Shown: positions 8,430-62,459, counted from the whole stretch's first letter. The stretch: 62,459 nucleotides of DNA, filler included, from Hausera hauseri (GCA_046269625.1; 10 parts of 10 records of this genome joined end to end with filler, not necessarily neighbours in it), one strand, 5' to 3'. Translations and numbers: made by a program. The notes: generated from the sequence alone by a model not told the origin.

Positions 8430-8444
8430 TTTATAACTATCGTG

Positions 8445-14350: not shown

Positions 14351-14534
14351 CCCTCCGGCGAGGTGGTAGTGAGGACGAACATACATTTTCCGCTACTTTT
14401 TTATTTAAAAGAAAATTAAAAATGTACGAAAAATCAAAGTAAAGAAATACCAAAAAACTCTATTTAATCAACATATCACAGACACCACCAAAAACCCTTA
14501 ACGACAAGATAAATGCAGTACGGAATGAATTAAT

Positions 14535-23800: not shown

Positions 23801-24123
23801 CATATTGATCAAGTCCATATTATGACGAATCGAAGAAGTCCGCGATTTCATTTATTGATACAGGGTGTTTTAAAGTCGCCTGTGATATTTTGATGGAAAC
23901 GACTGATTCATGCTATATATCATCAATTTCAAATGTATACATTTTATCCAGAATATAATTTCTATAATTTTATTAAAAACAACGTTTCTTTTATAGCTAC
24001 AATTTTAAATCACACAAGTGACTTTGAAAACACAAACGGATTCATAATAATTCAAATAAATAAGTGTAAACAAATGTTTGTTTTAATTACTTTAAATTTT
24101 AAAACTTGTTTTTGTCAAATTTT

Positions 24124-24738
24124 ATGGTGAGAATGAAAATGAATTCTACCGATTATATTACAGTTTCCGAAAGCGAAGATTCTGAGATAATTGAAATCCC
24201 AGTTGAAGAAGATGATTCTGTTCTTCTTTCCACAGTTGCTGGTATTTTTCCAAAAGTATGCGGTTTAAAATACCAATCACCCGAAACAAACAGTTTCCGT
24301 GCACTAAAATACAACAGTGGCAAATTTTACAAACCACCTATAGGTTGGGTTGGAATGATATTTTATTGTGTCTTTCCAAATAATAATAAGCGAAAAGGAG
24401 TCGATGAAGATGAAAAACCAAATCAAAAAACAAAACGACTGGACGGAAGACGATGTACAGATTTAATCGTGCTGAATATTGGATGGAAGGTGGATGAAAC
24501 AATTCTGAAGGAATATTTTTCTCAATTTGGTGAATTGGTTTTGTGTCAAGTAGAATTCGATGTGTAATTTCATGATCGAATTTCATTGTGTTAACAGATT
24601 AAACGAGAAAGAGAAACGAACAACAGTAAAGGATACGGATTTATTCGATTTTCCGAATATACTTCACAGGTTTTGTGTTTGGCAGATAAACATTTGATTG
24701 ATGGTCGATGGTGCGATGTTAAAGTGCCATTTTCAAAG
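24124..24738 (+). CDS. TARDBP: TAR DNA-binding protein 43, first two coding exons (24124-24549, 24598-24738); gene continues beyond
   Basis: IEIPVEEDDSVLLSTV..FP..CGLKY N-terminal domain, bipartite NLS, RRM1 DLIVLN..KEYFSQFGE / SKGYGFIRF..HLIDGRWCDVK; 48-nt GT-AG intron. Confidence 0.95.
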
Positions 24739-37530: not shown

Positions 37531-37860
37531 TACCCACACGCACACACAAACACACTCACAAGACATATATATTAATCATTCATTTCTCAAGTTACTCGCA
37601 TTTTACCCATATACACAGACAAAACACACACACACGAGACATATTTAAGGCGATTCATTTCCCAAGTTACTTAATTTTACCCATACAAACACACAAATTA
37701 TATTGTTATGAAATAAATGTGTTATGAAATTAGTTGGCCTTATCCTACATAGTTACTTAGTTTTACTTTGCCTTATCATATATTCCACATTACTTGATCA
37801 AGAAGACAACACGATATTTCTATACAACATTTATTAAACAAAGAATAACAATGTACATAT

Positions 37861-38445
37861 TTACAATGCCACATGTCCGTGGGGTAGTGTATGGATTCCA
37901 TCACCCAGGATCTGCCTCTAGTCATCCATCCAATCTAGGCTTTTCTTCTGTAATGTTACTATCTGAATGTTATGAGCCCTAGACGGGATCCTTCGCATCT
38001 CTGATACGATATGAGTCTGCTCATGCAGAACTTTAACATAGTCATTGAAGCCTATCTTCTTGGCTAAGGTCGCCCTTTGAACCCCTTTAGCACGCTTGTT
38101 TATTTGGCCATACATATCAATAGCATACATTTTGGAACTAAGAGCTACAAATGTCGAAATGATTGCTCCATTCACCTTGTCTTTGAATTTCCCAAGGAAC
38201 TTTTTGTTGGTAAATGAATAGTTGGGATGTTTCTTCGGATAGTTGGACGTATTCTTATGCTGATCCAACTTCACAAAGTCATCATAAATATCCTCAGTAT
38301 GGATCTGGTAGATGAAACTATCAGTATCTATATACATCAGCTGTATATACTTGAATGTGGGGATCATAATGTCATAGTGGAATTTGTACATCAAAGTCTT
38401 TGACAGGTCCAGTATTGCCATACCCACATATATGGGCTTGTTGAA
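37861..38445 (-). pseudogene. Protein-primed DNA polymerase B, C-terminal part (subfamily B)
   Basis: ILDLSKTLMYKFHY, YIDTDSF, LGKFKDK, KRAKGV; closely similar to 54504-55131 including the 3' UTR. Confidence 0.92.
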
Positions 38446-38656
38446 NNNNNNNNNNNNNNNNNNNNNNNNNNNNNNNNNNNNNNNNNNNNTTAATTAATTA
38501 ANNNNNNNNNNNNNNNNNNNNNNNNNNNNNNNNNNNNNNNNNNNNAAACATGTACAGCAGATGAATGTAAAATAAAGATCACAAATGTCAATGATCTAAC
38601 TGGACTGAATTGCATGTTTGCAGTGAACTCTTTGTAAACACTAAACGTGTGATATT

Positions 38657-41600: not shown

Positions 41601-42243
41601 GCACGTACGATCTATTTAGATCGTACTTGACGGTAATGGGTGGTTCCTGCTGGTCATGTTGCTCCTGCTACTGATGCTTACTGCTGCTGCTTTGCGCGTA
41701 TTCGTCAAAGCTTGTGGATGCTTGACGTTTTCTACTGGTTGTTGTTGTTGTTATTGAGGGGATGCTTCTTTTTGTCGAGTCCATGACTAGTTGCTTTTTG
41801 GACCGCTTAAACTGGTTTAAGTGGTCCTTGTGTTGATTATAGAATTTCTCATAGTTGATTTGATGATCATCAACTATAGAACAACAACAACCGGGACAAA
41901 CATAGACGCTTTTACTGTGCAGCGTTGTGGTGATGCCATAGTACTGTTCCATTGCAGTATGGCAACCATCAACGTTATGCACTCTACTAGTACAGTATTG
42001 TGGGTATGTGGGGTAATGCTCAAGCATCTTCTTGGACCGCGTAAACGGCCCGAGATGAAGCTTGTGCATCTCGTAAAAGTCGGCGTATGGGCACTGGGTT
42101 GAAGTATTGCACGTTGGACATAGATATGTGTCCGTCCCCACAGCGTAATATTTCGCCATCTGCTGATGGCACTTCTCCTGATCTATGTGTATGCGTGATA
42201 TGCAATACAAGGGATAATGTTTGCATTTCTGAATGAGAACCAA
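38657..42243 (-). pseudogene. Protein-primed DNA polymerase B polyprotein (Cys/His domain, terminal-protein/vOTU-like region, Exo with EndoVII-like insert, Pol), decayed, subfamily A
   Basis: KGSGW, NDEYCF, YADIE (ExoI), VIFHNFRDYD, YLDSLQFL..SLAKLV, YLKLDVYLLADVFQTFR, RGGMTFV, GDTGSFF, LDTSNY, FKDE; internal deletions. Confidence 0.9.
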
Positions 42244-42785
42244 ATTAAAGTAAGCGTAAAATGCAATATATATGTATATTAACTTATTAATAGTTTAAAT
42301 TAAAATAAAACACTACTTCTATGGTGGGGTGGGATGGTGATGGTAGTGGTCTAAGGGCGACTATAAATATTTGTCAATCAATGTCACAAGTAAACGAGAG
42401 ATGAAAGAGTACATAGAAAGTAAGATTCAGAGATTGACCTATGACATTTTGACCGGCCATGTGTTTGATGTTCAGTACATATGTGAGCTGTCAGAAACGA
42501 GAATAATGAGCAGGCGAGAATATATTGAATTAAGTCAGATCTCTGTTCGTAAAACGTATAGAGGATGAAATGAGACAAAAACGACAAAAACGACGACGAA
42601 TTAATTTCCTCATTGGACTTGTATTTACTGTTTCGCTTTGTATTGTAATAAAAAAGTTGATTGACCGTATTTAATCACAAATATATAATTTCGCTACGTA
42701 TTTGTTTTTATTGTGTGTGTGTGTGTTCAAGCTACATTGCAGTATAAATACTTGTGCTTCTTCTTTCTTTCCGTAAGATTATACA

Positions 42786-43334: not shown

Positions 43335-44039
43335 TCATTATAGCGAGGTAGGTGGGAAAAGGTGTCCAAAAACTAGGTCAAACAAAAAATGTTTGTTATA
43401 GTCAGATAGGTGGGGAAATGGTGTTTTCCTGAAAATAGGTCACAAAAATTTTTCAAAAATTTGTTATAATCAGATATGTGGGGAAATGTGGTTGTCCGAA
43501 AACTAGGTTATAAAATTTTCAAAAATTTGTTATATAGTCAGATAGGAGGGGAAATGATGTTGTCTGGAACTAGGTTATTCCAAAAATTTTTCCGACTCAA
43601 CTCATCTTACTAAATCTAAATATGCTGGTGTCTCGAACTAGGTCATTCCAAAAATTCTTCCGACTCAACTCATCTTACTGAGTCTAAATATGCAGGTGTC
43701 CAAAAATTTTTCCGACTCACTTCACATTACTGATTTCAAATATGCAGGTGTCCAGAACTGGGTCAGTCCAAAAGTTTTTTCGACCCAACTCACCTTGCTG
43801 AGTTCAAATATGCAGGTGTCCAGAACTAGATCAGTCTAAAAAATTTTTCGACTCAACTCACCTTACTGTATCTAAATATGCAAGTGTCCAGATCTGGGTC
43901 AGTCCAAAAATTTTTTCGACTCAACTCACCTTGCTGAGTTCAAATTAGTAGATGTCCAGAACTAGGTCAGTCTAAAAAATTTTCCGACCCAACTCACTTT
44001 GCTGAGTTCAAATATGCAGGTGTCCAGAACTGGGTCAGT
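43335..44039. repeat. 68-bp-period tandem arrays (two related sub-arrays), probable subterminal repeats of the pPolB element
   Basis: GGTGTCCAGAACT-like motif at 43747, 43815, 43883, 43951, 44019; TAGGTGGGGAAAT-like motif at 43407, 43475, 43543. Confidence 0.9.
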
Positions 44040-44160
44040 NNNNNNNNNNNNNNNNNNNNNNNNNNNNNNNNNNNNNNNNNNNNTTAATTAATTAANNNNN
44101 NNNNNNNNNNNNNNNNNNNNNNNNNNNNNNNNNNNNNNNCAAGGTGAAGCCGCCGCGCCG

Positions 44161-44220
44161 CGTAGCCGCCGACGTGAGGAGGCGGACTCGACACCCCAGC
44201 GCCGGAATCCGCCTCCTCAC
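44161..44220 (+). repeat. GTAG-type REP palindrome
   Basis: CGTAGCCGCCGACGTGAGGAGGCGGA...TCCGCCTCCTCAC; exact inverted copy of the first arm at 47857-47882. Confidence 0.7.
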
Positions 44221-44347
44221 AGGAGCGCGGCATTCAAGACGCAGGAAGGTTCGCACAATGCAGCGCATACCTAAATCCTCTGATTGGCGAACCATCCTGC
44301 GGAATGAAACCCAAGCCCAAGTGCATCTTGCAAGACACCGTTAATGT

Positions 44348-44722
44348 TCAATCGCACGGGCCCGTCCCGACCACTTCCGTGTATTCCTCTAAAGTCACAG
44401 CATCCGCAACCTCATCACCACCAACACATTCATGATAAAGAGAAAGATACCGCCCAGCGACAGGTAAACAATTTCCACCCGTCATTGGCGTTACAGTAGT
44501 TGAACGTAATTCTCCATACACACAGCTCTCGCCTGACCGAAATGTGGAGGAATCACATACGGTCTTAGCAGGTGAATACGCCGTGTAAGAACAAGGATTG
44601 GAGCTGCACGTTGCTCCAGTTTTTTCCACCGATCTCGCGCTCTCATAGCATGCCAACCCATACGAGATGCATGTTGTTAAGGCTAGAACGCACGCCGTCC
44701 GCATTTTATTTGTTGTCTTCAT
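44348..44722 (-). CDS. Secreted Cys-rich protein (signal peptide + 8 Cys in mature part)
   Basis: MKTTNKMRTACVLALTTCISYGLA-CYE...PCD; start overlaps or abuts the upstream stop. Confidence 0.7.
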   Translation of the reverse strand: MKTTNKMRTACVLALTTCISYGLACYESARSVEKTGATCSSNPCSYTAYSPAKTVCDSSTFRSGESCVYGELRSTTVTPMTGGNCLPVAGRYLSLYHECVGGDEVADAVTLEEYTEVVGTGPCD

Positions 44723-45785
44723 GTTTGTTTTGTTTACTTGAGCGGCGCCTCGCAGCCACACAGGTGACTGCAATTGGAGGCACCACAAAAAGGATTATCA
44801 AAATCGTCAGAAGAGCGCGGCCATTATGCGCACTCTCCCGCTTCTTGTCGCTGTTACTAGCAGCCAAACGCTGCGCAAACTGTCTCGCTTTGATCATCGT
44901 TGGACTGTTGGATTCAGGTATGGCGTAATTAGTGATTGATTTTATTGTAATCGGATTCTTCTCACGATAATCACCGAGATCTGTCACATTAGTCATTGCA
45001 GAAAATACTTTGCTGCCATGTAGGACTATGTTCGTCAGCACTCCTACGGTGTGCATCATAAATCCAGACTCACCATTTAACGCTGCTTTTTCTGCCGGAT
45101 GAAATTTCCTCAATTCAAACCGCGATGGAAAATCAAATCCAGATATGTTTGTCTTCTCAAGAACCGAATAGCGGCATTGCAGATATTCTGTTAATTTTTG
45201 CCCTGCTGAAGGCTCCCCGCTAGGTTGAAACGTGATTCCTATTGGATTGATGGAATATATAGAAACCGATTCTGGAAGCCCCCCGTTCTGCATCAACTTC
45301 CATTCGCCACGGCCCTTGATTGGCTTATTTCCGATGCCCAGCCCAGCCATCACCTCCATTTGTGTGTTTGTCTTGTTCCGGAAATACTCGGCTGTGCCCA
45401 AGCCCATGCAGGCTGCTTCCACTCTGGTTGACCTGGTTAATACATAATGCGCCGGTATAATGGACCCGGCAGCTTTATTGACCGTTCTTGCCTTTGAGAA
45501 GTTAACAAATGACACGACGTATTCCCCATTGTATGCGTCAACAAATGTATTCTCACTGCCAGCTCCCGAAGCTTTCATTGAGACAGCTTCCCATGTGTTA
45601 TTGCTGACACTGATTTCAAAGATTGATTCTGACTGCAAAGTCATATTTGATTCATACAAATACAGTCTAGAATTGATAATTCCCTGCGCAGTAAAGTGCG
45701 TTAAATTTACGGCATCTGCTGCCAGGCATCCAATGCATACTGCAAGCATCGTCAGCAGCACTCCAACACTCTGCAACATGTGCAT
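44706..45785 (-). CDS. Exported protein with signal peptide and C-terminal membrane anchor
   Basis: MLQSVGVLLTMLAVCIGCLA signal; ALLTILIILFVVPPIAVTCVAARRR anchor with basic tail. Confidence 0.7.
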   Translation of the reverse strand: MHMLQSVGVLLTMLAVCIGCLAADAVNLTHFTAQGIINSRLYLYESNMTLQSESIFEISVSNNTWEAVSMKASGAGSENTFVDAYNGEYVVSFVNFSKARTVNKAAGSIIPAHYVLTRSTRVEAACMGLGTAEYFRNKTNTQMEVMAGLGIGNKPIKGRGEWKLMQNGGLPESVSIYSINPIGITFQPSGEPSAGQKLTEYLQCRYSVLEKTNISGFDFPSRFELRKFHPAEKAALNGESGFMMHTVGVLTNIVLHGSKVFSAMTNVTDLGDYREKNPITIKSITNYAIPESNSPTMIKARQFAQRLAASNSDKKRESAHNGRALLTILIILFVVPPIAVTCVAARRRSSKQNKHEDNK

Positions 45786-45816
45786 TGTTGCGTTAATAGG
45801 TAAACAGCATTTCATG

Positions 45817-46308
45817 TTATGTGCGCTGAAATCGATCAATGAAACTTGTCTTTATTAGTCCTGCCGTGGATCCGATCAGCAAAAATAATACAATCATCGT
45901 TGCGGCGGTGTTTTTAACATTATCACTCACGCCTATCCACTGCCACCATGTTCCCAAACAAGCGCACTCACCTTTATAGCCAATTACTTTCAGCGACACG
46001 CGATAAAATCCTGCTACTGATGAAAACCACAATAAAGCTGTTAGTTGCAACAGCACAGATCTTCTCTTGTAGTAGGCCACGGTTAAAAGCACCAATACCT
46101 CCATTGCAATCGCGCAGATCATTACTGTTTTGTTGGTGGCAAACTTAAACAGTGGATCCGAGTTATTCATATAGGCGTTTGTTGGCTGGAATAGGCTGGC
46201 CAACTTGAAAGCCGCCGTCAGTGCAATGAGTGCGGACGCCACTGTGATGAACCCATTTGTAAATCCATCACCTGCGTGTTTTTGATTATCTTCCACGCTC
46301 ATTGTCAT
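45817..46308 (-). CDS. MauE/DoxX-family membrane protein
   Basis: About four hydrophobic helices, TAAFKL, DPLF, AMEVLV and the CACLG motif (MauE CxCxG). Confidence 0.75.
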   Translation of the reverse strand: MTMSVEDNQKHAGDGFTNGFITVASALIALTAAFKLASLFQPTNAYMNNSDPLFKFATNKTVMICAIAMEVLVLLTVAYYKRRSVLLQLTALLWFSSVAGFYRVSLKVIGYKGECACLGTWWQWIGVSDNVKNTAATMIVLFLLIGSTAGLIKTSFIDRFQRT

Positions 46309-46438
46309 TTCTCATACCCCAATCACCGTGACCGTCACGATGTCGCTTCATTGTCTCATCTGGCCTCACCCCGGTGGTAGGCGGCCTTGTAGCACCAACT
46401 GTTGTTCCCTCGTGTGTTCATGGCGTGCTTCATCGCCT

Positions 46439-47128
46439 TCAGGCTTGTGCCAGCGGGGCGTTGTAGGTGGCCTGGCGGATGCCGGAGCCGTAGTTCACGC
46501 GCACGAGCAGGGTCTGCGGGCCGGTGAGGGCGGCGGGCACCAGCACCAGCAGGGTGCCCTCGGTGCAGGTCAGGTAGCGCGTGGCGCGCGTCTCCACTCC
46601 CGCCGCGTTCTTCAGGAAGACGCCCTGTGTGGCGTCCGCCGGGTCCAGCTTCAGGTCGTGGCCGGTCAGGCGCAGGGCGTCCCCGGGGGTGTAGCTGTTG
46701 GGCGTGGGGCTGGCCTCGTTGCGCACCAGTTCCAGCTCCGGCAGGCGTTCGGTGTCAATCCCGGTGCGGTCCAGGGTGAGTCCCGCCTGGAACTGGCCCT
46801 GGAGTTCGCTGCTGGCGTAGAGGTTCAGGCTGGGGCCGATGTCGGCGGCGGAGAGGCTCTGCTCCGGGTCGTCCACGGTGCCGCCGCTGGAGAGGCCCAT
46901 GCGGAAGAGGCCAAAGAGCGGCTCGCTGGGGCGGGTCTGCTGGGCGGCGTTCACGAGGATGCGCCGGAGGTTGGAGAGCACGCTGCGGATGTCCCCCTCG
47001 GAGATGGCGGAGGCGTGGACGAGTTCCTCGATGACCTCCCCTTCCGTGAGGGGCGGGGCCAGATCGGGCCGGGTGGTGTAGGGGTGCGCGCCGAGGTGGC
47101 TGGGCTTGATGCGGTAGCGGAAGGGCAT
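46439..47128 (-). CDS. HU/IHF-like DNA-binding protein with C-terminal Ig-like (DUF4469-type) domain
   Basis: HU-like helices and GLFRMGLSSGG arm; YTPGDALRLTGHDLKLDPAD..QGVFL Ig-like domain; GC3-rich codons. Confidence 0.7.
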   Translation of the reverse strand: MPFRYRIKPSHLGAHPYTTRPDLAPPLTEGEVIEELVHASAISEGDIRSVLSNLRRILVNAAQQTRPSEPLFGLFRMGLSSGGTVDDPEQSLSAADIGPSLNLYASSELQGQFQAGLTLDRTGIDTERLPELELVRNEASPTPNSYTPGDALRLTGHDLKLDPADATQGVFLKNAAGVETRATRYLTCTEGTLLVLVPAALTGPQTLLVRVNYGSGIRQATYNAPLAQA

Positions 47129-47579
47129 GGGGTGGAGGTTTCAGGTTTCAGGTTTCAGATTTGAGATGGGAGGAAGCTGCTGCGGACGTCCGTGCTCCGG
47201 CAGCCGTGTGAGGGAATTTTTGCAGGGCAGTCTGGCGGCTTTTCCAGCCGTGTCCGGCGTCCGATCCCGGCGTGTTGGGGAAGGATTCATGCCGTGTCTG
47301 CCCCTCCCACACGGCGTGTTGGACGGGCAGACACGGTTGGGAAGGCAGCGAACCCAGTCCTGAAATGTTCCCGCTACCCGCGCAGAACTGTCCCATAACG
47401 GGACGAATGCGGGGGGGGGGTATAAAAACGGGACACGACTCCCGCCCATTCCGGGCCGGGGCAGAAGAAAGGCACTCTGGTGTCGGTCTCTCTTCATGCG
47501 CTAGGTGTGGCGCACGACATACCCGCTCCCTGTGGCAATGTCAAGTGTGCTGGCTGTGCCATTTCCGTTTCGGGAGCAT

Positions 47580-47752
47580 TTCAACCCGAATTCCGAAACA
47601 GGCCTCACGCAAAGGCGCGAAGGCGCGAAGAAGAAAAGGCTTCCGTTGGACAGTGCCCTGAAAAACAGCCGCCATCGGCCTTCAGGAGAAAACCGCTCCC
47701 TTTTGCGCCTTTGCGCCTTTGCGTGAGGTTTCATTTAGGAAGTCGGGTCAAA
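47580..47752. repeat. REP-like inverted repeat pair
   Basis: CTCACGCAAAGGCGCGAAGGCGCGAAG (47604) mirrored by TTTGCGCCTTTGCGCCTTTGCGTGAG (~47702). Confidence 0.7.
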
Positions 47753-47888
47753 ACCCCACCCACTGAGGGCACCGGGCCTGCAAGCGGGATATTGCGTCCG
47801 GTTCCTGCAGGCCGCGTGCCCCACGCGGCGTTCCGGCGGGTCTTGAAAGAACCTCATCCGCCTCCTCACGTCGGCGGCTACGGGGCGG

Positions 47889-48882
47889 CTACCTGCCTCC
47901 GGGGAGGTAATACTTCTCGGAGTATTCCTGCACCATGCGCCAGGTGCTGTATTGGGCGGCGAGGGTGCGGAGGGAGTGGCGGATGCGGGCGATCCACTGG
48001 CGGGGGATGCCCTGGGCGTCGCGGTTGAAGAAGGAGGGGATGACTTCCTGGGTGAGGGCGCGGTAGAGGTTCTCGCTGTCGCGGCGATCCTGTTCCTCGA
48101 TGTTGTCGGGGTGGGTGTCGTCGCCGATGGAGAAGCCGTTCTGGCCGTCGTAGCCTTCGCGCCACCAGCCGTCCATGATGCTGAGGTTGAGGCCGCCGTG
48201 GGAGGTGGTCTTCATGCCGCTGGTGCCGCTGGCTTCGAGGGGGCGGCGGGGATTGTTCAGCCAGATGTCGCAGCCGCCGACCATCTGGCGGGCGACGTGG
48301 ATGTCGTAGTTCTCGATGAAGACGAGGTGGCCTTTGAGGGCGCTGAATTTGCTGAGGTGAATGACTTTCTGGATGAAGGCCTTGCCGTGGTCGTCGCGGG
48401 GGTGGGCCTTGCCGGCGAAGATGAACTGCACGGGGCGGGCGGCGTCTTTGACGAGCTGCACGACTTCATCGAAGCGGTCGAAGATGAGCGGGGCGCGCTT
48501 GTAGGTGGCGAAGCGGCGGGCGAAGCCGATGGTGAGGGCGTCGGGATTGAGGAAGGCGTCGAAGGTGATGAAGTCCCCGGCGCTGATGCGATGGCCCTGG
48601 ATGAGCAGGCGGCGGCGGGCGAACTCAATGAGTTCGCGGCGGAGGCGGTAGCGCAAGGCCCACAGTTCCTCGTCGGAAAGCAGGTCGGGATCGGTGACGC
48701 GCGCCCAGAATTCGGGCGTGTTCGCGCCTTCGATCCAGGCGAGGCCGTCCTTGCCGGGGTGCAGTTCGTTGAACTTGCGCCGCCAGAAGCGCCGCACGGT
48801 GCCCTTCATCCAGCCGACGAGGTGGACGCCGTTGGTGATGTGGCCGATGGGCACGTCCTTCGCCTCGGCCTTGCCGAAGAAG
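47889..48882 (-). CDS. glgP: Alpha-glucan (glycogen) phosphorylase, 5' truncated, bacterial
   Basis: ITNGVH, TIGFARRFATYKRA, FAGKAHPRD, WLNNPRRPLEASGTSGMK (PLP lysine motif), DGWW. Confidence 0.96.
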
Positions 48883-49819: not shown

Positions 49820-50900
49820 TTGTAGCGTGTTGTCAATATTAAGAGGATGATCCAACAAATACCTTACATTGACTGTGTTAAGGAGAAACGAGGTTTAGTC
49901 TTTAAAGTTGACTTGAGAATTCCAGCAGATAAACATGATAAATTGGAATAACTGATTTTAGCTTCAGTCAACCAGTGTCCACCAGGTTCAAAAGTAAAAA
50001 AATTGTTACTGACACATGAACGTAAATCCAACTGTGTTGTTCACTATCGGCTCTTACAGTTGTACATGGAGTTAGGCTCTATAGTTGAAAATGTTCATGG
50101 GGCTGTTGAGTTTGACAAAGGCTATGTCTTTAAGGATTACCTTGATCTAAACACTGCTAAGAGGGCTGCAGCGAAAAATCCTTTTGAAAAAGACTTTAAG
50201 CTCAAGAACAACAGCTTGTATGGTAAGACAGTCGAAAACCTTTTAAAAAGGTCCAACTTGAGACTATGTAATAATGCTAAAAAGCTTGTGACATATGCTA
50301 GTAAGGCCCAATTTAAAGAGAGTATTATAATAGACGATGATCTTGTTGCTGTTCTCCTTGATAAAGATACAGTCACCTTAGATAGACCCTCATATCGGAC
50401 AGGCTGTACTTGATCTTTCCAAGTTGAGAATGTATGAATTGAATTACATAGAGTTAGAGTCATATAAACATCAGTTCAATTGTGAACTTAATATTGTTGC
50501 TGGTGACACTGACAGTTTCTTTCTTCAGTGTGATGGTGTTGATTTGCGAACACAGCTCTTACCAGCAATGATAGCAAACGAGAAGTTGGACACTTCTAAC
50601 TATGGCGCTACAGACCCTCTTTATTCTACTCGTTTCGCTTTGGTAATTGGAAAATTTAAGGATGAAAGTAAGGGTAGTGCAGAATACGAAGAAGCCATTT
50701 TCCTAAGACAAAAATCGTATACCTTCAAAACTTAAAACAAACCAGTTCCGAAATGCAAGGGCATCAATGTGAAACAAACGGATTTGCACTTTGACAACTA
50801 CTTGCAAGCGTATGAGAATGGATGTGGAACAATTGTCGATCAAGAGCGGATTGGACAAGGAACTATCAATTAATGACGATCAGTAGCAAAAAGAAAGCAC
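49820..50900 (+). pseudogene. Protein-primed DNA polymerase B, polymerase-domain fragment (subfamily A)
   Basis: KLKNNSLYGKT (motif B), IVAGDTDSFF (motif C), LDTSNY, IGKFKDE. Confidence 0.9.
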
Positions 50901-51142
50901 TAGATCCATTCGGCGACAAATGACAGTAAATATCAAAAAACAAAAGTGTCGAATATGTACATTATTGTACAAATGTGTAAATATTTGATTGATTGTATGT
51001 ATTATATTAATAAATATTTGTACAGACTTCTTTGTCTTATGCTTTTTCTTATGTTTTGTCATAGGGTACCTTTAAATGTTGACAATTTGTTCACAAGTGA
51101 CATAGGGGTATTTATATCAACTTTGCAAAATTTAAACAAATT

Positions 51143-51222
51143 TGGGGTGGAAATAGTGAAACCACGACGAGGCCAATTGATTTTTTGGGGTGGGAATAGT
51201 GAAACCACGACGAGGCCAAAAT
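51143..51222. repeat. Two direct copies of GGGGTGG(A/G)AATAGTGAAACCACGACGAGGCCAA upstream of polB
   Basis: Copies at ~51143 and ~51187. Confidence 0.7.
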
Positions 51223-51289
51223 TTCCCATATAAAATATTGATTATTGATTTCCAATCTTGGAGGGTCCTCGAGATAGGAAATTTGTATT

Positions 51290-54200
51290 GGCCTCATGTC
51301 CTCTCATACCCATACTTTTACAACATGGTTCAGTATTATATATGCCCTGCATGTAAGGTAGTGTGCCAAACCAATTATGAAGACTTTTACAATGTCCATA
51401 AACAGCACTTGATTTCCTTCACCAAGTCGAAAAAACAAATATTCAGTACCAATATGCCAATAATGACTTTCATGCCAAAGGAAAATCAAAGATGAGGTTT
51501 ATATGTGTATTGCACATGTACAATACACAACCCTCAGAATTGGCACAATACCATGAGGAGCTATTATGTACACAAATTCAATAGGATCCTCTATTATCTT
51601 TGCCCAGGATGTGAGACTGTATGTGGTGGAGAATAAATACAGTTTTATGAAGATTACAAACATCATTTGACTGACTTCACATCAAAGTCAAAGAAGGTCA
51701 TATTTAATGAGCAGCATCCTGCTTTGGCAGGACAACCAGTTTTACAGCCTGTTTTAGCAGAAAGGCCCGATGCAGGACTAAAACGCATATCAGAGGTATC
51801 AGCAGATGTTCCATCAAAAAGCCAAAGACAGCGGCCAGTTGATGTATCTGCACTGAAGAGCAAAGTGCGGCGATATTTCATAGCAGCAGTAGGGCAGACA
51901 ACGCTCCATGAATTCCTGGAATATTCAAAGGAGGAGGCAGCAGGAATTCTCCAGGACGTGTTGGAGCTTGAAGGCCCTTAAGGTGAACTTCAAATTGGAA
52001 GCCACTTCACTAATGTCAAAGGAGAGCTGTCTAGTAGAGCCTTCAAGACAAAGAACAGGCCACTATTGAAATACTCTGACATTAAGGATTTCATTACAGA
52101 GGACTATGCAAGGCTCATCCAAGAAGCCGAAGAAAGCCAGGACAAGAAGAGCGGTTGGACTTTAGCAACAATAAATGGGTTAGTTGTGCACAAGTATTCT
52201 TCCATGAGAGGAAGCTCCTACAATACCGCTTCCTGAATAGATAGTTAAGAAAAAGGCATTCATCAATATCCATAATGAGGACAACATGTGCTTCATGTAT
52301 TCTCTTTTGTCAAAACTAGTCCAGGATCAACATAATGCTTCCCGAGTTTGGATATATGACAAAGTGCAGCACACATACGACTTCAGCTGTATTTCATTCC
52401 CACCGAGCCTAGATGAAGTCGTGAAATTTAAAAGAATGAACAACATCTCCATCAACATCTTCGGATTGGAGGAGGACAAATTTTATCCCTTACATGTGTG
52501 TAAGGAGGAATTGGAGGATCATAGGGATCTGCTTCTACTAGATGATGGACAAACGAGGCATTTCATCTGGATCAAGAATTTTGAGCGTCTCGTAGGATCC
52601 CAAATATCCAAGCATAAATCAAGGCTGAAAATATGCAAAAGATGCTTTACCTTTTTTAATGGAGACAGCCGCAGAAAACGTGGAGGAGCAAAAAACCTAC
52701 TGCAATACAAACTATTGCATCCGAGCAGAATTCCCCAAGGAGGATTACCTGGAATTCAAAGAGTTCTAGAAGATGCAGAAGTTGCCAATTGTCATATATT
52801 GTGACTTTGAGGCCATTCTCAGTCCAGTTCACAGCTGCAGCCCCAATCCACAGCAAAGCAGTGTACTACAGCATACCAGTACGATGAGTTATATTCATAC
52901 TGCATGTATGCCAAAGGATCCTACCTATACAAGGGTGTAAATGCAGCAGCACATTTTATGCAGGGTCTGGAACAGTATTCTCACAAACTTGAAGACATGT
53001 TGCAGCCGCATAAGGGCTACATGGTGATGTCGCAGCAAGAAAAATGTGAATGGCGCAAAGTATCAACGTTCTACTTATGCAGAAAGCCATTCACATGGGC
53101 CAATCACAAAATTCAAGGATCACTGCCATTTTACAGGCATATGCCGAGGCGCAGCGTGCAACAATTGCAACTTACGCTGCAAGACATGTACATATGTTCC
53201 CGTGGTATTCCACAATCTTGGTGGATACGATTTCTTCTTCATTGTTCAAGAATTGGGTAATATTAAGAGGAATATTGATATGATTCCAAATAGTGAATAG
53301 AAGTACATAACCTTCACGAAGCATGTGGGCCGCATTAGACTTCGCTTCATTGATAGCTTCCGCTTCATGAGCTCGTTACTGGACAGCCTCGTGAAGAACT
53401 TTCCAGCTGATGAACTCAAGGAGTCGAAGAGGTTCTTTCCGGATACATTTGACGTGGTGAAGCGGAAAGGAGTGTTCCTCTATGACAATATATAACGTCA
53501 TGGAAAGCACTGGATGAAGATGCATTACCGGCCAAGAGGGACTTCTATAGTCAGTTGCCATAGTCATTAGCGATGCTGACTATGAGCACGCCCAAAGAGT
53601 ATGGCAGACCTTCCAGTGTAGGACAATAGGGGAATACAGTGGTATCTATCTCCTCACAGATGTGCTGTTGCATACTGATGTCTTCGAAAGCTTCCGGGAT
53701 GTGACCCTTAAAATCCACAAGCTAGATCCAGCCCGTTTCTTTACAGCTTCAGGAATGAGTTGGGCAGCTATGCTGCGCTATATCGTCATAAGGCTCCAGA
53801 TCTTGAAGGACTACAATATGGTTCTCATGATTGAAAGAGGCATCAGGGGCGGAATCTGCTAGGCCATTCACAGGTACAGTGAAGCCAACAACAAATGCAT
53901 GGCAGATTATGATCCAAGTAATCCTCATATGTATTATACCTCGATGCCAACAATCTGTATGGATGGGCAATGAGCAACCCATTGCCCTATGATAACTTTC
54001 AGTGGGTGGAGCAGACGCAAGTCCTGGATATTGAAGGTATTGATCCCAATGGAGATACGGGCTACATGCTGGAGGTGGACGTGGAATACCCACATAGCAT
54101 CCACGCAAGGCATGAGCAGTTGCCTTTTCTCTCGGAGAGAAAAAGGCCGCCAAATGACAAGTATAAGGATCTGCTCCTTCACCTCGAAAACAGGGAGAGG

Positions 54201-55131
54201 TATGTAACTCACTACATAAACATCCAACAGACCATCCAAAATGGACTCCGAGTCATCAGGGTTTATCGGGCCCTGCAGTTCATCCCGTCCAAATGGCTGA
54301 ATACTTACATCGACCTCAATACCCAGCTGAGGGCCAATGCCAAGAACCAGTTTGGAAAGGACCAATTCAAGCTGTATAACAACTCGGTCTTTGGCAAAAC
54401 TATGAAGAACATGCGGAACCGGATAAACATCGAGCTGGTATGTGACTGGAAGAGTGCAAATAAACTCATCGCTAAGCCCAACTTCCACAACAGCACAATC
54501 TAAATGGAGAACCTGGTGAGCATCCATATGCTCAAGACATCACTTGAGTTCAACAAGCCTATATATGTGGGCATGTCCATATTGGATCTATCCAAGACCT
54601 TGATGTATGACTTTCATTACAACATCATGGTCCCCACATTCAAGGAGCTCCAGCTAATGTACATGGACACGGACAGTTTCATATACCAGATTCATACAGA
54701 TGATGTTTTTGAAAAGTTTGCAAAACTGGCGAAGTACATTAATACCTCGGACTATCCGAAGGATCATCCAAATTACTCAACCGTCAACAAGAAGGTCCTC
54801 GGGAAGTTTAAAGACGATGTGAATGGGAGGATCATTACCCGTTTCGTTGCGCTGAGATCAAAAATGCACGCCATCGATGTAAGTGATCAGGTAAAGAAGT
54901 GGGCTAAGGGAATTTCAAGGGTCGCATTAACTAAAGATATAGGCTTTGTAGATTTTGAGAGTGTTGAGGGAACAAACTTACATCGTCAGGGAGATGAAGA
55001 GGATCCAGTCCCGGGAACATCAGATTTTCACGTTTGCACTGCAAAAGAAAAGCCTCGATTGGTTCGATGATAAAAGGCACATTCTTGAAGACGGAATCCA
55101 CACATTATCTCACGGATATGTGGCATTGTAA
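51290..55131 (+). pseudogene. Near full-length protein-primed DNA polymerase B polyprotein with T4 endonuclease VII-like insert (subfamily B), decayed
   Basis: KSGW, NEDNMCFMYS (vOTU-like Cys), YCDFEA (ExoI), KDHCHFTGICRGAACNNCNL, FHNLGGYD, YLDANNLYGWAMS, KLYNNSVFGKT, YMDTDSF. Confidence 0.93.
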
Positions 55132-55633
55132 ATAATGCTATTCATTGTTATTCTTTGTTTAACAAGTGTTGTATAGAAATATCCTTTTGTCTTCTTGATC
55201 AAGTAATGTCGGATATAGGGTAAGCCCAAATAAAACTAAGTAACTACTACATAAGTTAAGACCAACTAATTTCATAACACATTTATTTAGTAACAATATA
55301 ACTTTGACATAACGCTAAACACTTTTATAGGCACAATATAAACCATGTTCACGATAAATACATGTAATGTTCTTTGGTATAGTTACCAATTTTTTACATT
55401 CATATGCACATATTCGCACATCTGGAAATATGCTATTAAATGTCTTCTTCTTTCGCCCATCAGCATGATCTTTGATATAGAACATGGATTCATTTATATC
55501 ACATATATTCCCAATATCTCGCATAATACAATCNNNNNNNNNNNNNNNNNNNNNNNNNNNNNNNNNNNNNNNNNNNNTTAATTAATTAANNNNNNNNNNN
55601 NNNNNNNNNNNNNNNNNNNNNNNNNNNNNNNNN

Positions 55634-58083
55634 GAACATGATTCGGTTCCTCAAGCTATAAATTTGTGCTCGCTTTTCATTTTCTATCTTCAGCCGATTT
55701 TCCAAGTTTGCATATTGTTTGGGCGTAGCAAATGCGATTTTTATTATTTCCATTAAGGGAGGAACATCCAACGGGTCTATACCCAGTATTTCCAAATCGA
55801 TATTACTGCGGTGGTTAACTGATTTTTCCTTAAGGTGTTTAATCATTGCATACCTGATTTTGTTCATGATACGTTCTAAGTTACGGACTACTCTCTTCAG
55901 TTTTGAGTTCTATTCTACAGAGGATAATAGTATTTGAGCCTCAGTGACTTTTACGTCAACTCTATCTTTGTTCTTATTCCATCCTTCTGCAAACTCAACT
56001 CCACTTTTAATCCACAATTCCAATTCGTGTTTTCATTTTAATAATATTTCTGGGGACAGCTCTTTAGGCTGTCTCACATCGATTGTTTCCACGAACCTTC
56101 CTTCGCTACGTTATTTCAGGCTTTTGTATAACTTCTCGGCATATTGCTGTTCCTTCCCAGATATGTCGACTTGTTCCCTAATCTGCTTGAGCTTCTCCAA
56201 ATTTTGCTGTAATATTTCGGGCTCTAAACAATAAATTCTCATTTTCTTTAATTCGTCGGGGTTTTTCCATGAGCGTCGGATTTTCCATTTTTGAATTGAA
56301 ATCGTCATTGTCTGCCGCTTCTTCCTCACTAAAGGGAAATGGGCAGATTTCGTTGATTTCATTAATTGACCCTATTGGCTCCGCTGCTCCTACAGGTGTA
56401 TATAAACCAATTTCTGGTGTATGCAAGCTATGTTCCGTGTCACCTTCCACAACAACATTCAAGTTTTCCCTTTCATTAATTTTCTCTCTGGTTATTTTGG
56501 AGCGTGAACGACTCTTACGTTTGGTTTTTAATAAAGGGCTACGGCCTCTATTTTTCGTAATCTTAAGTATTAATGGTTCCATAAATTTATTTTCCGCTGT
56601 ATCATCCTCCGCGAACTTAGCTACCTTCTCGACTGCGAGTTCGGGTTTCGCATTCGCGAGCTCTGCGTCTAAATCAATTTCCGTCAATGTGCCTGGTTCC
56701 TTAGGTGGCTTGTTACTTGTCGGAATACTCTTTTTCCGTGTCATATCGCTTCGCTTTGGTGCTATCTCGTGTTCGTATTTCGTCTCGGGTTCTGCTAATC
56801 CATGATATACCTCTAGCAATCTCAGTTTATCTCCGTATTTTCTTCTGGCCATCAAAATTTGTAAGTTCGTAGAGACTGGTTGAGCATCCAAAAATTTTCT
56901 CAAATCCTGTACATCGATAATGGTGGCTGTATCTCCACGAACGCCATATTTCGTCTCTAGTTTCTCGTTAGTTCTACTCATACTAGTCTTATTTGGTTCG
57001 GTAAATGAAACGCTACGTGGATTTGGACATGACCTTGAAATGTGTCCTTCTTTTCCACAAGTGAAACAAACCAAATTCCCATTCCTGCCGACTCCCTGCC
57101 GACCGTCTTCGTTCACTGGTGACTTAGATCTATTTATAATTTTATTAAACTGGTTTAACGGACTTTGCATATTATCGATATTTCGTTTATTATTGTTACT
57201 TCGGTTATCACTGATTTGATTCGAGTAGGTTAAACCTCTATAACTTCTTCTATTCCTATCCCAATCTGAATCTGGTCTGTTCGTATAATTATTACCTCTG
57301 CCATTTCTGTAACTAATATTATTATTCCTATTCCCATAATCTCGATTACCTGTAAATCGTCTATCATCTCGTTGATCATTTCTTCTGTCATTTCTTCCAT
57401 GATTATCATTGCGATTTCTATCATTTCGATCATTTCGGTCTATTCCTTTTGTTTCTATCGTTGTGTCTGGCGTACCTATCCAACGCCATTTCTAAATCTT
57501 GAGCTAGTCGTAACGTTTCTTCAAAATTTTCAGGTCTAGCCAGAATCAATTGTTTAACTAGGTCGCGCGACCAGATACCATTTATCAGTTGCGTCGTCAT
57601 CATAACATCTAAGTCTGGTGGTGAGGCCTTCTCTGCGGCGTCACGTTTTGCATCCGTCTTAGCTTTAGCTACGTTGGCTATTCTTAGCGTGCTAATATAA
57701 CTATTCGCAAGCTTTCTTAACGCAAAGGCGAACTGGGTTACCGATTCACCTTTTTGCTGTACTCGGTTCTGAAATGCCATGAGCTTTTGCTGCGGCGTCA
57801 CTGTCGGCAACAGTTTACGATTTAGTGCTCCTACCAGGGAGGACCAAAATTTCTTATCGTCATTAGTGAGTTCACTATAGGCATCTGCGGCTAAATTTTT
57901 TAAATATAACGACAGTCGCTTGATCATTACTTCCGTAGTCAAGCTAGCGCCTTCTGCGTGCAGTTCATAAGTCCTCAGAAATTCGTTAAGCCCGTCCGGG
58001 TCTCCGTCGTATGCCGGCAAGTTAAGAGAATCAAACGTGAAAATGTCCAGCTTCTGTGCTACTGGTGGATTATCTGCTGCCAT
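55634..58083 (-). pseudogene. gag: Ty3/gypsy Gag (capsid, R/N/D-rich linker, CCHC knuckle, long charged tail), frameshifted
   Basis: LPAYDGDP..EFL..YE, LYLKNLAADAY, RVQQKGESVTQFAFALRKLA; CFTCGKEGHISRSC. Confidence 0.88.
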
Positions 58084-58463
58084 ATTACTTACTTTATCTA
58101 ACTCTATATTCACTTTATTCACTTTAAGTTTTTCACGTGGGGTTTTAAATTTATTATCGTTTTTAATGTCATCTAGCTTAATTCTATTCTCGGAATTCGA
58201 TCGTTTATCTACTTTTTTTGTTTCTATATATATATATTTCTACGTGTCTCACGTATAGGGGAATTATCTTTTAGTATATGGTTTAATCTTGGTCTATCAA
58301 TGATTGTTCTCAGTTACGTTTGTTTTACTTATCCCCCTCTGAATGATCTTATATCCCGATAGATTTAAGTTTCAATATATGTCTAATTACTTGGTGTAGA
58401 TGGCGCTGTTCGCCGATATGTGATTATTCAACTCTGAAAGTAAGTCTAGCGAGGTACAGACTG

Positions 58464-58480
58464 TCCTGCTAGGGTCGCCA
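58464..58480 (-). promoter_or_regulatory. Primer-binding site (tRNA-Arg-like)
   Basis: Minus strand TGGCGACCCTAGCAGGA, 2 nt after the LTR-terminal CA; similar to the TGGCGACCGTGACAG tRNA-Arg PBS of mdg1/412-type elements. Confidence 0.8.
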
Positions 58481-58482
58481 AA

Positions 58483-59191
58483 TGTTATATATTGGGGTGG
58501 CCCTAATCAACTCCCTCTATATAACAAAAGTTTCACTTGAATTTGATATCACTATATGGCCCGGTCTATCGTAATCGTATAGACTGCCTGTACCTTACGA
58601 ATTTTATATCTCTGTGCTGGTACTGCGTGCGTTAGTTCTTGCGTAGTTTACAAATATCTGTTCTCTTAGCTATATATATTACGTCTCAATTTTTACCTTA
58701 CTGTGGTCTAATCACCCTTAAGGGGCGAAGGAAATTATCGGAGTTATTTTAAAAGAAATAATAATACCAAAACTTTAATCCTCAATAGATACACAAATTC
58801 TGCTTCAATCGATCACGAATCAATAAGTCGTTAATGTAATCTCTAAAATTCGGAATTTCTATCCAGACTTGGTTAACACGAAATAATCTGTCTTCGCACT
58901 GTTCTGTTCTCAATCGTTCTGCGTTCCCTTATATAATATTCTAGCCCCCTTCAATAACTATTAATTTTGTCTTTTTTTGCAATTAGTATCTCGACGGATA
59001 TATTTCATATCAATTTCGGCTCATACTATCCCGAGATTTCACATTAATTTCGTGATTACGTCTCGACAAAATCTCAATTTTTCTATTAATATTCTATTCT
59101 AATTTCATATCTGCTTGTAAACTAAAAATAAAATACCGATTACAATTATATACATTTCTACAAGATTTTGTTATTTTGGCCTGTCACAACA
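58483..59191 (-). repeat. LTR (~709 bp)
   Basis: Starts TGTTG directly after the PPT and ends TAACA directly before the PBS; TATATAA at ~58930. Confidence 0.8.
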
Positions 59192-61706
59192 TTTCTCCTC
59201 CCTGAACGGCACGCTCGGATGTGCCTATTGCGTCAGGAGAGGTGCCGCGTTGGCGTGGGTCTCTCAACAGCTCCATTCTTCTCCTCAGATTTGAATCTGA
59301 ACTGGTACTTGGTTGATCCTCTCTAGGGTTCCTTTCAAGCCCATAGCTATGGTAAGGTTTAATTCTAACTAATCAGGTGTAACTGCCGTTTGAATAATAT
59401 TTTAAGTCAGCAGCTTCTGCGCGGCATACCGGGCAGGTGGTTTTTCCATTCTCTAATGTCCATTTTTCTAAACAAAACCTACATTATTTGTGTCTACAGT
59501 CGGTGTTGTTCAACATTACATATCTTTGCTTCAGGTCGGCCTCGCAAACAGGGCATTCGTTTTCTTCTTTTTCCCATTTCTCGTCATCCAAATCTACTCT
59601 TATCGTAATCTCTATGGGCTCCACAACCAATCCGTCTTCGTCTTGGTATAAGTAGGCAGCAATTCTTTTCTGTTTGGGATTTATCGAGCTCTTTTTTGGA
59701 TCACATCCCACGGGTATTAAGGTCCAGTCGCTAATAGTGTCTCGATCTAAATCGGGAACTTCACCAGTCGACTGGTATTTCTGGTATTGTTTCTTTAGCA
59801 TTGTTTTTACCGCTTTATCGACGGGCACCAAAAGTTTGGCATTCCTTCTTGATTGGAATATTGGAGCGACATATTTGCCTATCTTGGGATTCTTCCAGAC
59901 ATATGTATTTTCGTATACTTGTCGGGCGGGCATCGCTTTGACGAAGAACATTGCTTCTTTGATTTTCTGCTTACTATAGTATTCGGTAGCTATTAACATT
60001 CGGGGGTAATCTGCTGTAGTAGCGTAATGAACATTTTCTGTGGACGTCTTTTTCCTTTAGACGTTTACTTCGGTTATTCGTTCTTTTTTGTTGTCTGGCT
60101 TCCAGTTTTCTTCCTTTTTGTTTTCTCGTTTATGTGTCTGTGTGGGTTCTGAATTCTTTTCCGGTCTTTGTTTTTCCTCTAATCTCTTTTCTCCTTCCTT
60201 ACTTCTTTTCTTAAATAGATAATCAAAAACGGATATTTTCCTTTTAGTCGTTTTTCCATTTTCGGTTTCTGGTTTCTTGTCGTTTCTTAAATATTTCTGA
60301 GGGGTTTCAGGTATTCTAAATGAATAATCCTTTGTTGAGTAGCTTGTACTGGGTCTTTCCCGAATTTGCCTCTGATTTTCTACTGCTTCGGCTTTCGATC
60401 CTTGTATGGTTATTTGATAGTTCCATTTTGGGGTAATCTCAACATTTCTGGGTGGAGAATAGGGGCGAAAATGTCTACGATAGTGTGTGTTAAAATCTTG
60501 GGTTCTTGGAAAATTTAGTAGGTTCTGTGCAGGGTTGTGGGGAATCCATTCGTGTTCCCACTTTAATCCGGCACTTATATCTCTTAGGTACTGGGATCTT
60601 TGACTGGCGGTCAATATTCTGCTGATTTTAATATTTCCTCCGGTCATGGCGTCTATCATTAGCTTAGACCGACCTTCTGGGGTTAGTAGAATATGTCCCC
60701 TTCTTTCTTTGTCTTTAATCTGCATTTGTTTCACAACGGTTGGGTGAGATTCTATTTCTCTTATTCCAGCTAAGTGTTCTATCGGTATGTCTAATTTTCT
60801 CATTATTCTCTCTAGTTGATACCCCACTAAGACGTATCCGTAAAAACATTGTGCCACTTCTTGTTGTACTAATTTGACGTCCTTTCCTTGACTCAATTGG
60901 TCTCTTCTAATTCCAGTGACTTCTGCGTGAGTTTCAAGTATCTTTTTCCTTGGAGTAATAATCTTCAAATAAATTTTGACTCCGTTTTCTTCCCTGATAG
61001 ATATTTCGATTGGGATATAATCTTCTTCTCCCTCCCCGTAATTTACTGCTACAACTCGGATGTTTCGGTCATTTGCTACCAGCCTAAAGGAATATAGATG
61101 ATTTTCTTGTTCTAGTTCTGTAGGCCTTTGTCTAAATTTTATAGGGGGCAGTATAGTGTATTTTGGTTCCTCTTTGGTCGTTTCGATCATCATTTTGACT
61201 GGCAGGGCGGCTACGCGAAATTCTAGTTCTTTATCCTTGAAGTTCTTGTTATCGAATACGAACGTACTGAACCGACTTTGTCTTCCTTGGAAGGAATCCC
61301 ATTTTTGTTCTTTTAACCGATAATATATTTCTCCGTAGGCTAGATGCACGTATATTCTTTGAGGCTCGTCTGTTTGATATTGAGCGATTTGCCTAAAGGA
61401 ATAGGCTATGACGTCTTTATTTTCCCTCCAGGCGTATAAATATACTGTCCGGTTTTCCTCGGTCATTCCCTTTAGACCATTTGGGATTTCACTGACTGTA
61501 TCATACTCAGCCATATCTTTCTCTTGTAATTCATTATTGATCTGTCTGTATATAGCGTTTGAATTGGGAATTCGTACGGTTACATTTTTCTGTAAAAATT
61601 CGTCGATACTAAGTCGACGTGTGGCGTTTTGAGTATCGTTTTCAGTGTCGACTGTAATTCGGCTCGCATTCTCTCCTGCGTCGATCCTAAGTCGGCTAGA
61701 ATCCAT
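59184..61706 (-). pseudogene. Accessory protein (~840 codons): unknown N-domain, inactive ISG20/REX4-like DEDDh fold, charged linker, conserved domain, C3HC4 RING; three in-frame stops
   Basis: ORF-track entries 60057-61706 and 59484-59999 share one frame that continues to 59184 (stops at 60057, 59484, 59373); IEISIREENGVKIY..IITP..I..THAEVTGIR...VQQEV...VLVGY; CPVC..CRHK*CRFC..W..CPVCR. Confidence 0.75.
59192..59203 (-). promoter_or_regulatory. Polypurine tract
   Basis: AGGGAGGAGAAA followed by TG. Confidence 0.82.
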
Positions 61707-61826
61707 TTGGGTCTAGTTACTTATTAATCTGAAGAAAAAGAGATAAAGGTTTATTCTAGAACAAAGGATTGTTTGGAACCAAAACCAATTCTTTGTTTGA
61801 TGACAGAATAACTTGCTCTGCAATTG

Positions 61827-62459
61827 TTAGGTTATTTTATCATAGGGATCTACAGAGGTTTCCAACTCCCTTAGTTCCCATTCCGAATTTTTATGGCGCT
61901 TAAAATAGCAGTTTTTGGTGACTAATCTAAAAGTCTCAATTAATATGATGAGAACAACCGCTGACAGTACCACAATAGATACGATTGGTAGTGCAGTTAC
62001 TCCTATCGGTGCTTGTGTGACAACTCGAGTTGTGATCTGCTCATCTATATCCTCATATGCATAGAATTCTGCGCGAATCTCATCTAAGGTTCGCAGTGTA
62101 ATTGTCTGATTTTGCTTATTCTCTGCCCATATTTGTACTATATATTCAGTTTGTGGTTGTAATAAGTTACACTCTGTTTGATAAATATTTTTAAATAACA
62201 TCACCACTTGATTATTATACGTTGTCCGGCAACTTAGATATATATCGTAGTTCTGTTTCTCTTCCACTGAGAACACAATCTTAGATCGATATGTTGAATA
62301 TTTAATAGGAATACTTCCTAGCATTTCTTTTGTGGCGATAAACGTAGTACTACGGATTGTACTTGGCGTCGTGGATGGTTTTCCCGTCGTGGTCGGGCGT
62401 GAGAGTTCCCATACTCTGTCCTTGGGACTATATCTTCTCAGGAAAAAACCCCGTTCACC
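61827..62459 (-). CDS. Type I membrane protein: Thr/Ser-rich stalk, FN3-like domain, TM helix, short cytoplasmic tail (5' end outside window)
   Basis: Frame open to the window end; CNLLQPQTEYIVQIWAEN resembles the FN3 L.P.T.Y.V.V.A motif; ALPIVSIVVLSAVVLIILI TM helix. Confidence 0.65.
   Translation of the reverse strand, partial: GERGFFLRRYSPKDRVWELSRPTTTGKPSTTPSTIRSTTFIATKEMLGSIPIKYSTYRSKIVFSVEEKQNYDIYLSCRTTYNNQVVMLFKNIYQTECNLLQPQTEYIVQIWAENKQNQTITLRTLDEIRAEFYAYEDIDEQITTRVVTQAPIGVTALPIVSIVVLSAVVLIILIETFRLVTKNCYFKRHKNSEWELRELETSVDPYDKIT

Follow-up and report, generated by a model that had tools for sequence, protein, structure and literature searches.

The window, the stretch of 62,459 nucleotides from Hausera hauseri (GCA_046269625.1) that was analysed, consists of 10 separate contigs joined by 9 artificial 100-bp N-padded spacers (9265-55633), so features on different contigs are unlinked. 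Two of the contigs carry diverged copies of a long open reading frame (ORF) that lies against a long terminal repeat (LTR). Their features are as follows.

55634-62459: contig of 6.8 kb with accessory ORF copy 1
62459-61827, minus strand: 3' end of a membrane-protein ORF in the env position, cut by the contig end, with one strong hydrophobic segment
61747-61729, minus strand: splice-acceptor-like site 23 nt before the ATG, 14 of 15 positions pyrimidines, the best of 4 on the contig
61706-59184, minus strand: accessory ORF copy 1, 840 codons (beta-barrel domain, pseudo-DEDDh domain, basic linker, domain without an assigned fold, RING, tail)
59203-59192, minus strand: polypurine tract (PPT) of 12 nt, coding for the last residues of the ORF
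59191-58483, minus strand: LTR of 709 bp, TG...CA
58480-58463, minus strand: primer-binding-site-like sequence (PBS), starting with TGG, 2 nt past the LTR
58095-58087, minus strand: donor-like splice site, 9 nt upstream of the gag start codon
58083-57430, minus strand: gag capsid region
57491-56178, minus strand: gag continued in a different frame; CCHC zinc knuckle at about 57071-57021
9365-13518: contig with accessory ORF copy 2
about 13516-12482, minus strand: upstream membrane-protein ORF of copy 2
12259-9907, minus strand: accessory ORF copy 2, more decayed
9923-9912, minus strand: PPT of copy 2, the same as that of copy 1
9911-9365, minus strand: partial LTR of copy 2

The PPT, the TG...CA LTR, the PBS and a gag with a CCHC knuckle show that copy 1 belongs to an LTR retroelement. 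The PBS presumably resembles tRNA-Arg primers. All three PDB matches of the gag capsid region were Drosophila Arc capsids, but these were weak (best E 0.085), and no significant Pfam match was obtained for it; the knuckle scored above the Pfam cut-off for zf-CCHC (E 1.8e-6). The first-pass annotation had called the element gypsy-type. The LTR, PBS and gag fit that label, and the element is likely a gypsy; because no pol was found on the 6.8-kb contig, the label depends on these three features. No aspartic-protease motif was found in 55634-58240, about 2.4 kb past the gag start, and a word-indexed protein search gave no longer gag relative among 2187 candidates, which is weak evidence. A further decayed frame follows gag-CCHC on the minus strand (56260-55637) with neither a Pfam match nor a protease motif, and gag seems unusually extended.

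The accessory ORF sits between the membrane-protein ORF and the PPT/LTR, the position of a 3' accessory gene, as had been proposed. Its extent of about 840 codons through the PPT into the LTR was also as described: it ends 5 nt into the LTR, with its final stop (59186-59184) inside the repeat. The frame is, however, not open: three in-frame stops, read as X, fall at residues 550, 741 and 778. The putative donor and acceptor suggest that the ORF is likely made from a spliced subgenomic mRNA. The upstream membrane-protein ORF is 34% identical to that of copy 2 (E 1e-23); in the 210 residues available for copy 1, neither a significant Pfam match nor a furin site was found.

The diverged second copy reported previously was confirmed. 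It has its own acceptor-like site in the same place (12261), its own PPT, partial LTR and upstream membrane ORF, and its protein is 41% identical to that of copy 1 in the N half (E 4e-90) and 51% in the C half (E 5e-103), although the ORF is split over two frames with 3 and 4 internal stops. The LTR of copy 1 resembles the DNA downstream of copy 2 (local similarity score 53 against a maximum of 37 in 300 shuffles). A third member, P0002, is an intact relative of 870 amino acids with the same layout and 40% identity over residues 32-840, and is the sole intact full-length relative found among 1.84 billion representatives. All three proteins share a C-terminal QGGEM (QGGEML in copy 1).

No second LTR was found on the 6.8-kb contig, and a single LTR with the 3' gene on one side and gag on the other points to a tandem pair, to a circle or to collapse during assembly. 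A rival reading accepts the architecture but puts the link to this gag, or to an autonomous gypsy, down to collapse through a multi-copy LTR, or takes the unit for a non-autonomous or non-gypsy LTR element. We regard this as unlikely. The unpaired LTR, the short contig from a mixed assembly, the very uneven depth across the LTR (53 to 18,894), the missing protease motif and the empty search for longer gag relatives all speak for it. Against it, copy 2, which lies on a different contig, repeats the PPT, the LTR start and the acceptor, and P0002 terminates with these PPT-encoded residues; the link between ORF and LTR is therefore independent of the join in copy 1.

The remainder of the window is heterogeneous, with AT-rich eukaryote-like contigs beside a GC-rich, bacterial-looking one (44140-48882) that carries a glycogen-phosphorylase-like frame recognized by eye and marks the assembly as mixed. 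The type of the element and the contigs around it suggest that it comes from an animal. Decayed Polinton/Maverick-like pieces (packaging ATPase, capsid, protein-primed polymerase B) were seen by eye at about 4200-9264, 37695-42294 and 49952-55304, two stretches of which (37695-38445 and 54549-55304) are 74% identical. A reverse transcriptase fragment (36846-37346, plus strand; Pfam RVT_1, E 3.4e-22) lies on another contig and is unlinked to the element with the accessory ORF. Also noted were a frame that by eye looks like TDP-43 from its N terminus through its first RRM (24103-24567, plus strand), which could help to place a host, and a tandem repeat with a unit of about 68 bp (43338-44039).

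Domains of the accessory protein

The protein encoded by copy 1 is divided as follows, all on the minus strand.

61628-61107 (residues ~27-200): N-terminal domain, by prediction an AlkB/cupin-like double-stranded beta-helix, with no HxD/HxH metal motif
about 61094-60537 (residues ~205-390): ISG20/REX4-type DEDDh fold without any of the five catalytic residues
60536-60027: charged linker, poorly conserved (32% identity to P0002) and predicted disordered (pLDDT below 35 in the P0002 model)
60014-59571 (residues ~565-712): conserved domain before the RING with no fold assigned, 61% identical to copy 2 and 51% to P0002
59555-59424: C3HC4 RING finger, whole in P0002, with a stop codon inside it in copies 1 and 2

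The nuclease block had been aligned by eye to ISG20/REX4 nucleases at about 60560-61070, and sequence, profile, ESM Atlas and Foldseek comparisons all placed such a domain there, within slightly wider bounds. Pfam did not detect the block in copy 1, and copy 1 alone gave weak matches among 15 against the PDB (SDN1, E 0.33; ISG20L2, 0.74; ISG20, 1.0). With a 9-row family profile, 5 of 5 PDB matches were DEDDh proteins, the best being ISG20L2 (E 1.7e-18), and 28 of 30 ESM Atlas matches were RNase_T (0.94). The same Pfam family accounts for 13 of the 15 representative matches confined to the nuclease block. In an AlphaFold model of P0002 the domain has a pLDDT of about 70-91, and Foldseek returned ISG20 as the top match (E 1.1e-8, rmsd 3.2), the structural match to RNase T/DEDDh proteins that had been looked for. 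This match is not independent of the sequence evidence, because 3 of the 14 rows in the AlphaFold alignment are REX4-type. A single-sequence fold of the N half of copy 1 (pLDDT 36) was not used.

DEDDh catalysis needs the ExoI D/E, the ExoII GHxxxxD and the ExoIII HxxxxD. Neither window copy, nor P0002, has any of the five residues tested (ExoI Asp and Glu, ExoII Asp, ExoIII His and Asp) at the aligned position; at the ExoI Glu the alignment has a gap, and some rows have a Glu nearby. The ExoII words GYQLERI and GYNVxRS had been read correctly, as had the absence of the ExoII Asp and the ExoIII His/Asp. To these is added the ExoI Asp, which is Asn in all four rows of the clade and also in P0020. 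Since the intact P0002 likewise lacks all five residues, the loss of catalysis is not decay of individual copies. The suggestion that the loss is ancestral thus holds for the clade bearing the RING; it does not extend to the whole family, in which 6 of 12 rows are active. The ExoIII region of the dead domain is remodelled. Around the pocket, residues do not vary between active and dead members: all 12 rows have P252, R253, G265 and G295, and R316 is present in 11 of 11. The net charge of the dead domain is +2 to +4, and that of active relatives +3 and -6.

The N-terminal domain had gone unnoticed earlier. It is beta-rich in the P0002 model, with pLDDT mostly 65-89. The non-nuclease Foldseek matches of the model include ALKBH5, ALKBH7, Ofd2 and cupins (E 3.6e-4 to 1e-3, rmsd 5-11) and came with no query range; viral matches include 2OG-Fe(II) oxygenases. 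These AlkB/cupin-like matches probably belong to the N-terminal domain, for which neither a sequence-profile match against the PDB nor a usable ESM Atlas match was obtained. HxD/E, HxD...H or HxH ligands occur in 0 of 4 rows of the RING clade, which have no iron triad. The domain is common to active relatives. The conserved domain before the RING gave no significant Pfam or PDB match and has a low-confidence fold in the P0002 model.

The RING lies exactly where it had been reported and passes the Pfam gathering cut-offs (zf-RING_2, 28.5 against 27.3 bits; zf-C3HC4, 27.5 against 21), as does that of P0002. The C3HC4 ligand spacing matches in copy 1 (read with X) and in P0002, whereas copy 2 lacks the full pattern. 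Both copy 1 and P0002 have the Trp and Pro-x-Cys-Arg features that are usual in E2-binding RINGs. A weakness is that both window copies are broken, and at the same RING codon. Two of the stop codons could be compared with other copies; no differing letter was listed there, which does not prove sameness. We read the stop as decay because the RING of P0002 is whole and the codons past the stop are still constrained.

Relatives, phylogeny and selection

Searches for the family gave 61 representative matches: 41 are confined to the RING and 15 to residues ~190-350, and 5 begin in the N-terminal domain. A word-indexed protein search produced no match for P0001 among 5325 candidates, and the same kind of search with the family alignment had P0003 as its sole match among 8000 candidates; both are weak evidence, as the first also missed P0002. 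Viral contigs gave no match to the P0002, P0021 or L001 protein, and the RING clade was found in 0 of 502 stretches of metagenome contigs. Two DNA sequencing runs contain the family; no RNA run was listed for it, which says nothing about expression. In one of them, X1, 9108 contig pieces fall on the copy 1 contig and 4138 of these are less than 90% alike; the family is multi-copy in this run, with many divergent copies.

Twelve rows share the N-terminal domain and nuclease block. Four form the window clade (copy 1, copy 2, P0002 and P0003, the last truncated and uninformative on the RING), two are dead and RING-less (P0009, P0020), and six are RING-less with the full D-E-D/E-H-D set, including the ExoIII His (P0004, P0063, L001, L002, P0021, P0064). 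For the N-terminal domain, 7 of the 8 outside rows passed a shuffle test of homology, with 12.7-26.6 bits against a maximum of 9.6 in 1600 shuffles; P0009 failed. The window clade has support of 98/96 in one tree and 93/97 in another. The second tree, from which five rows were omitted (two near-duplicates and three tandem-domain rows), separates 10 family nuclease rows from 7 REX4 rows with 100/98. A single origin of all six dead rows was considered and set aside: its support is 76/87 on long branches, and the alternative is not rejected (p-AU 0.052). Proteins of 730-800 amino acids with about four tandem REX4-type domains, several of them degenerate, were also encountered (P0006, P0007 and P0016, the last named from the insect Clastoptera arizonana).

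Between copy 1 and copy 2, pS is 0.73-0.90 and pN 0.18-0.34 across the five regions measured, and synonymous sites are saturated; dN/dS could be computed for the RING alone and is 0.07. The comparison called for earlier thus indicates purifying selection, pS exceeding pN in all five regions. In the dead nuclease, pN is 0.34 against a pS of 0.77, and the domain was therefore maintained as a protein after catalysis was lost. It is nevertheless among the faster-evolving folded parts (37-45% identity, compared with 51-67% for the domain without an assigned fold and the RING), and these last two are the best-conserved parts of the protein. The active gene is under strong constraint (dN/dS 0.01-0.03 between L001 and L002). 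Upstream of it lie a signal-peptide/transmembrane ORF without a known family and then duplicated small coiled-coil ORFs (L001 1-1515, 1773-2207 and 2669-3061; L002 588-1169). Conserved synteny by homology between the membrane ORF of the window and that of L001 was rejected, since a pairwise E of 9e-4 was obtained but a two-copy profile did not rise above 1000 shuffles. No clear PPT or LTR was seen in L001 either, so the active relatives are not claimed here as mobile retroelement genes.

These data also bear on whether the ORF is a host gene, or a neutral captured fragment, that adjoins an LTR by chance. The nearest named relatives of both known domains are indeed cellular REX4-type and RING proteins. 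However, the ORF has no introns and ends in a PPT in two diverged copies, its synonymous sites are saturated while the protein is constrained, and many divergent copies occur in one run. This explanation is largely refuted, and we consider it extremely improbable.

Known systems and a possible role

The literature searched describes no LTR element in which a DEDDh pseudonuclease and a RING are joined; supplements, Repbase, Dfam and GyDB lay outside that search and could hold one. The words exonuclease, RING, accessory and ubiquitin do not occur in the text of PMC13524379, and the portion of the Kuafuortervirus report that was available (PMC11673190) names no pseudonuclease-RING gene. DEDD nucleases as extra LTR-element genes are already known. 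The bdelloid rotifer LTR retrotransposons Juno and Vesta carry a DEDDy exonuclease ORF3 with intact catalytic residues; there too, going by the sections of PMC5408684 at hand, a DEDD 3'-5' exonuclease is additional cargo in the 3' portion of the element. In those same sections, though, the rotifer enzymes are active and RNase D-like, and the word RING does not appear, whereas the window gene encodes a dead REX4/ISG20-type DEDDh domain with a barrel in front and a RING fused to it. Its profile matches are to DEDDh proteins, not to the RNase D-like DEDDy type with an intact active site. Ubiquitin-related cargo has a parallel in the planarian giant gypsy elements Burro and GYPSM1, whose MATH/TRAF, BIR, ubiquitin-like and AIR1 "RING Zn-finger" motifs were proposed to meddle with host systems; as described in the accessible part of PMC6431247, this cargo lies mostly within a gag-pol polyprotein of roughly 5,000 amino acids and includes no DEDDh pseudonuclease, which sets it apart.

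A precedent for the logic proposed below is PML isoform 1, which joins a RING-Bbox-coiled coil to a pseudo-exonuclease, PXL, that binds G-rich and poly(UG) nucleic acid and, like the domain described here, has a DEDDh fold without catalytic residues (PMC13659232, available in part). From the same excerpt, PML-1 serves host defence in vertebrates, its RING is N-terminal and its EXO-SAM module is TREX1/Exu-like, whereas the window protein is element-encoded and ISG20-like with its RING at the C terminus; the two are of separate origin. The fold and sequence family of residues ~205-390 are those of ISG20, ISG20L2, REX4 and SDN1 (PDB 1wlj, 7yw5, 5z9x), from which the domain differs in having none of the five catalytic residues at their columns. 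Poxvirus p28/N1R joins a KilA-N domain to a C-terminal RING E3 and so likewise combines a virus-encoded nucleic-acid-binding module with a C-terminal ligase, but it has an unrelated binding fold and comes from a DNA virus; the analogy is functional only.

The reading we favour, with confidence a little short of even, is that the ORF is a 3' accessory gene of an LTR retroelement whose product acts as a host-directed, nucleic-acid-guided ubiquitin ligase that removes host proteins hindering the element. In an ancestor, a captured REX4/ISG20-type 3'-5' exonuclease would have become joined to the C-terminal side of a beta-barrel domain, an active form still present in RING-less relatives. One lineage would then have lost catalysis, kept the fold and gained the conserved pre-RING domain and the RING. 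The dead nuclease and barrel might hold RNA or DNA ends, whether of element transcripts, reverse-transcription intermediates or small-RNA complexes, while the RING would recruit an E2 and lead to ubiquitination of proteins bound at the held nucleic acid. We infer the nucleic-acid binding, E3 activity and target of the protein, and an anti-silencing or anti-restriction role is suggested by analogy only.

The nuclease domain itself supplies an objection to this scheme. Its low net charge and fast divergence count against nucleic-acid binding, which, given the divergence and the remodelled ExoIII region, may be gone too; the better-conserved domain adjoining the RING may be the true substrate receptor. 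Pursued further, the dead nuclease and barrel could be protein-binding mimics or decoys of host RNA-processing enzymes that bind no nucleic acid, with substrates selected by protein contact, possibly through the domain without an assigned fold. The charge, the divergence and remodelling, the barrel without a metal motif and the peak of conservation in the pre-RING domain and RING would all suit such a protein. The fixed residues around the pocket (P252, R253, G265, G295 and R316) would not, and known DEDD pseudonucleases keep RNA binding in the parts of PMC13659232 and PMC5408684 available, so we think it improbable.

Alternatively, the E3 activity of the same gene could be aimed at the element, the protein binding element RNA and ubiquitinating Gag or the membrane protein in RNA export, particle assembly, budding or uncoating. 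The ORF directly follows the one for the membrane protein in each copy, its donor and acceptor sites are like those of retroviruses, and replication-cycle roles were suggested for the rotifer DEDDy ORF3s in the available part of PMC5408684. On the other hand, RING-less relatives exist, which makes the RING an add-on, and no fusogen signature was found in the part of the membrane ORF available (no significant Pfam match, one strong hydrophobic segment). We hold this self-directed role to be doubtful, if a serious contender.

Returning to the host-directed ligase, its boldest form is that an animal LTR-retroelement lineage turned a captured ISG20-type antiviral nuclease stepwise into a double-pseudoenzyme RNA sensor, made up of the AlkB-like barrel and the dead DEDDh domain and coupled to a RING ligase, a Vif/ICP0-style counter-defence that degrades host small-RNA or RNA-modification machinery and is the mirror image of host PML-1. 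We put this forward as speculation that is more probably wrong than right.

In any case, the N-terminal beta-barrel, the pre-RING domain, the splice signals and the shorter RING-less relatives with an intact active site go beyond what had been noted for this DNA. The family preserves a series from active DEDDh through dead without a RING to dead with a RING, suited to studying the repurposing of a host defence enzyme by a parasite, and it also offers a conserved domain without an assigned fold. To our knowledge, LTR retrotransposons of invertebrates are generally regarded as gag-pol(-env) elements that lack counter-defence genes. An accessory gene that is spliced and under selection, and whose product combines a fold for nucleic-acid binding with an E3 ligase, would give a concrete counter-defence candidate that can be put to the test.
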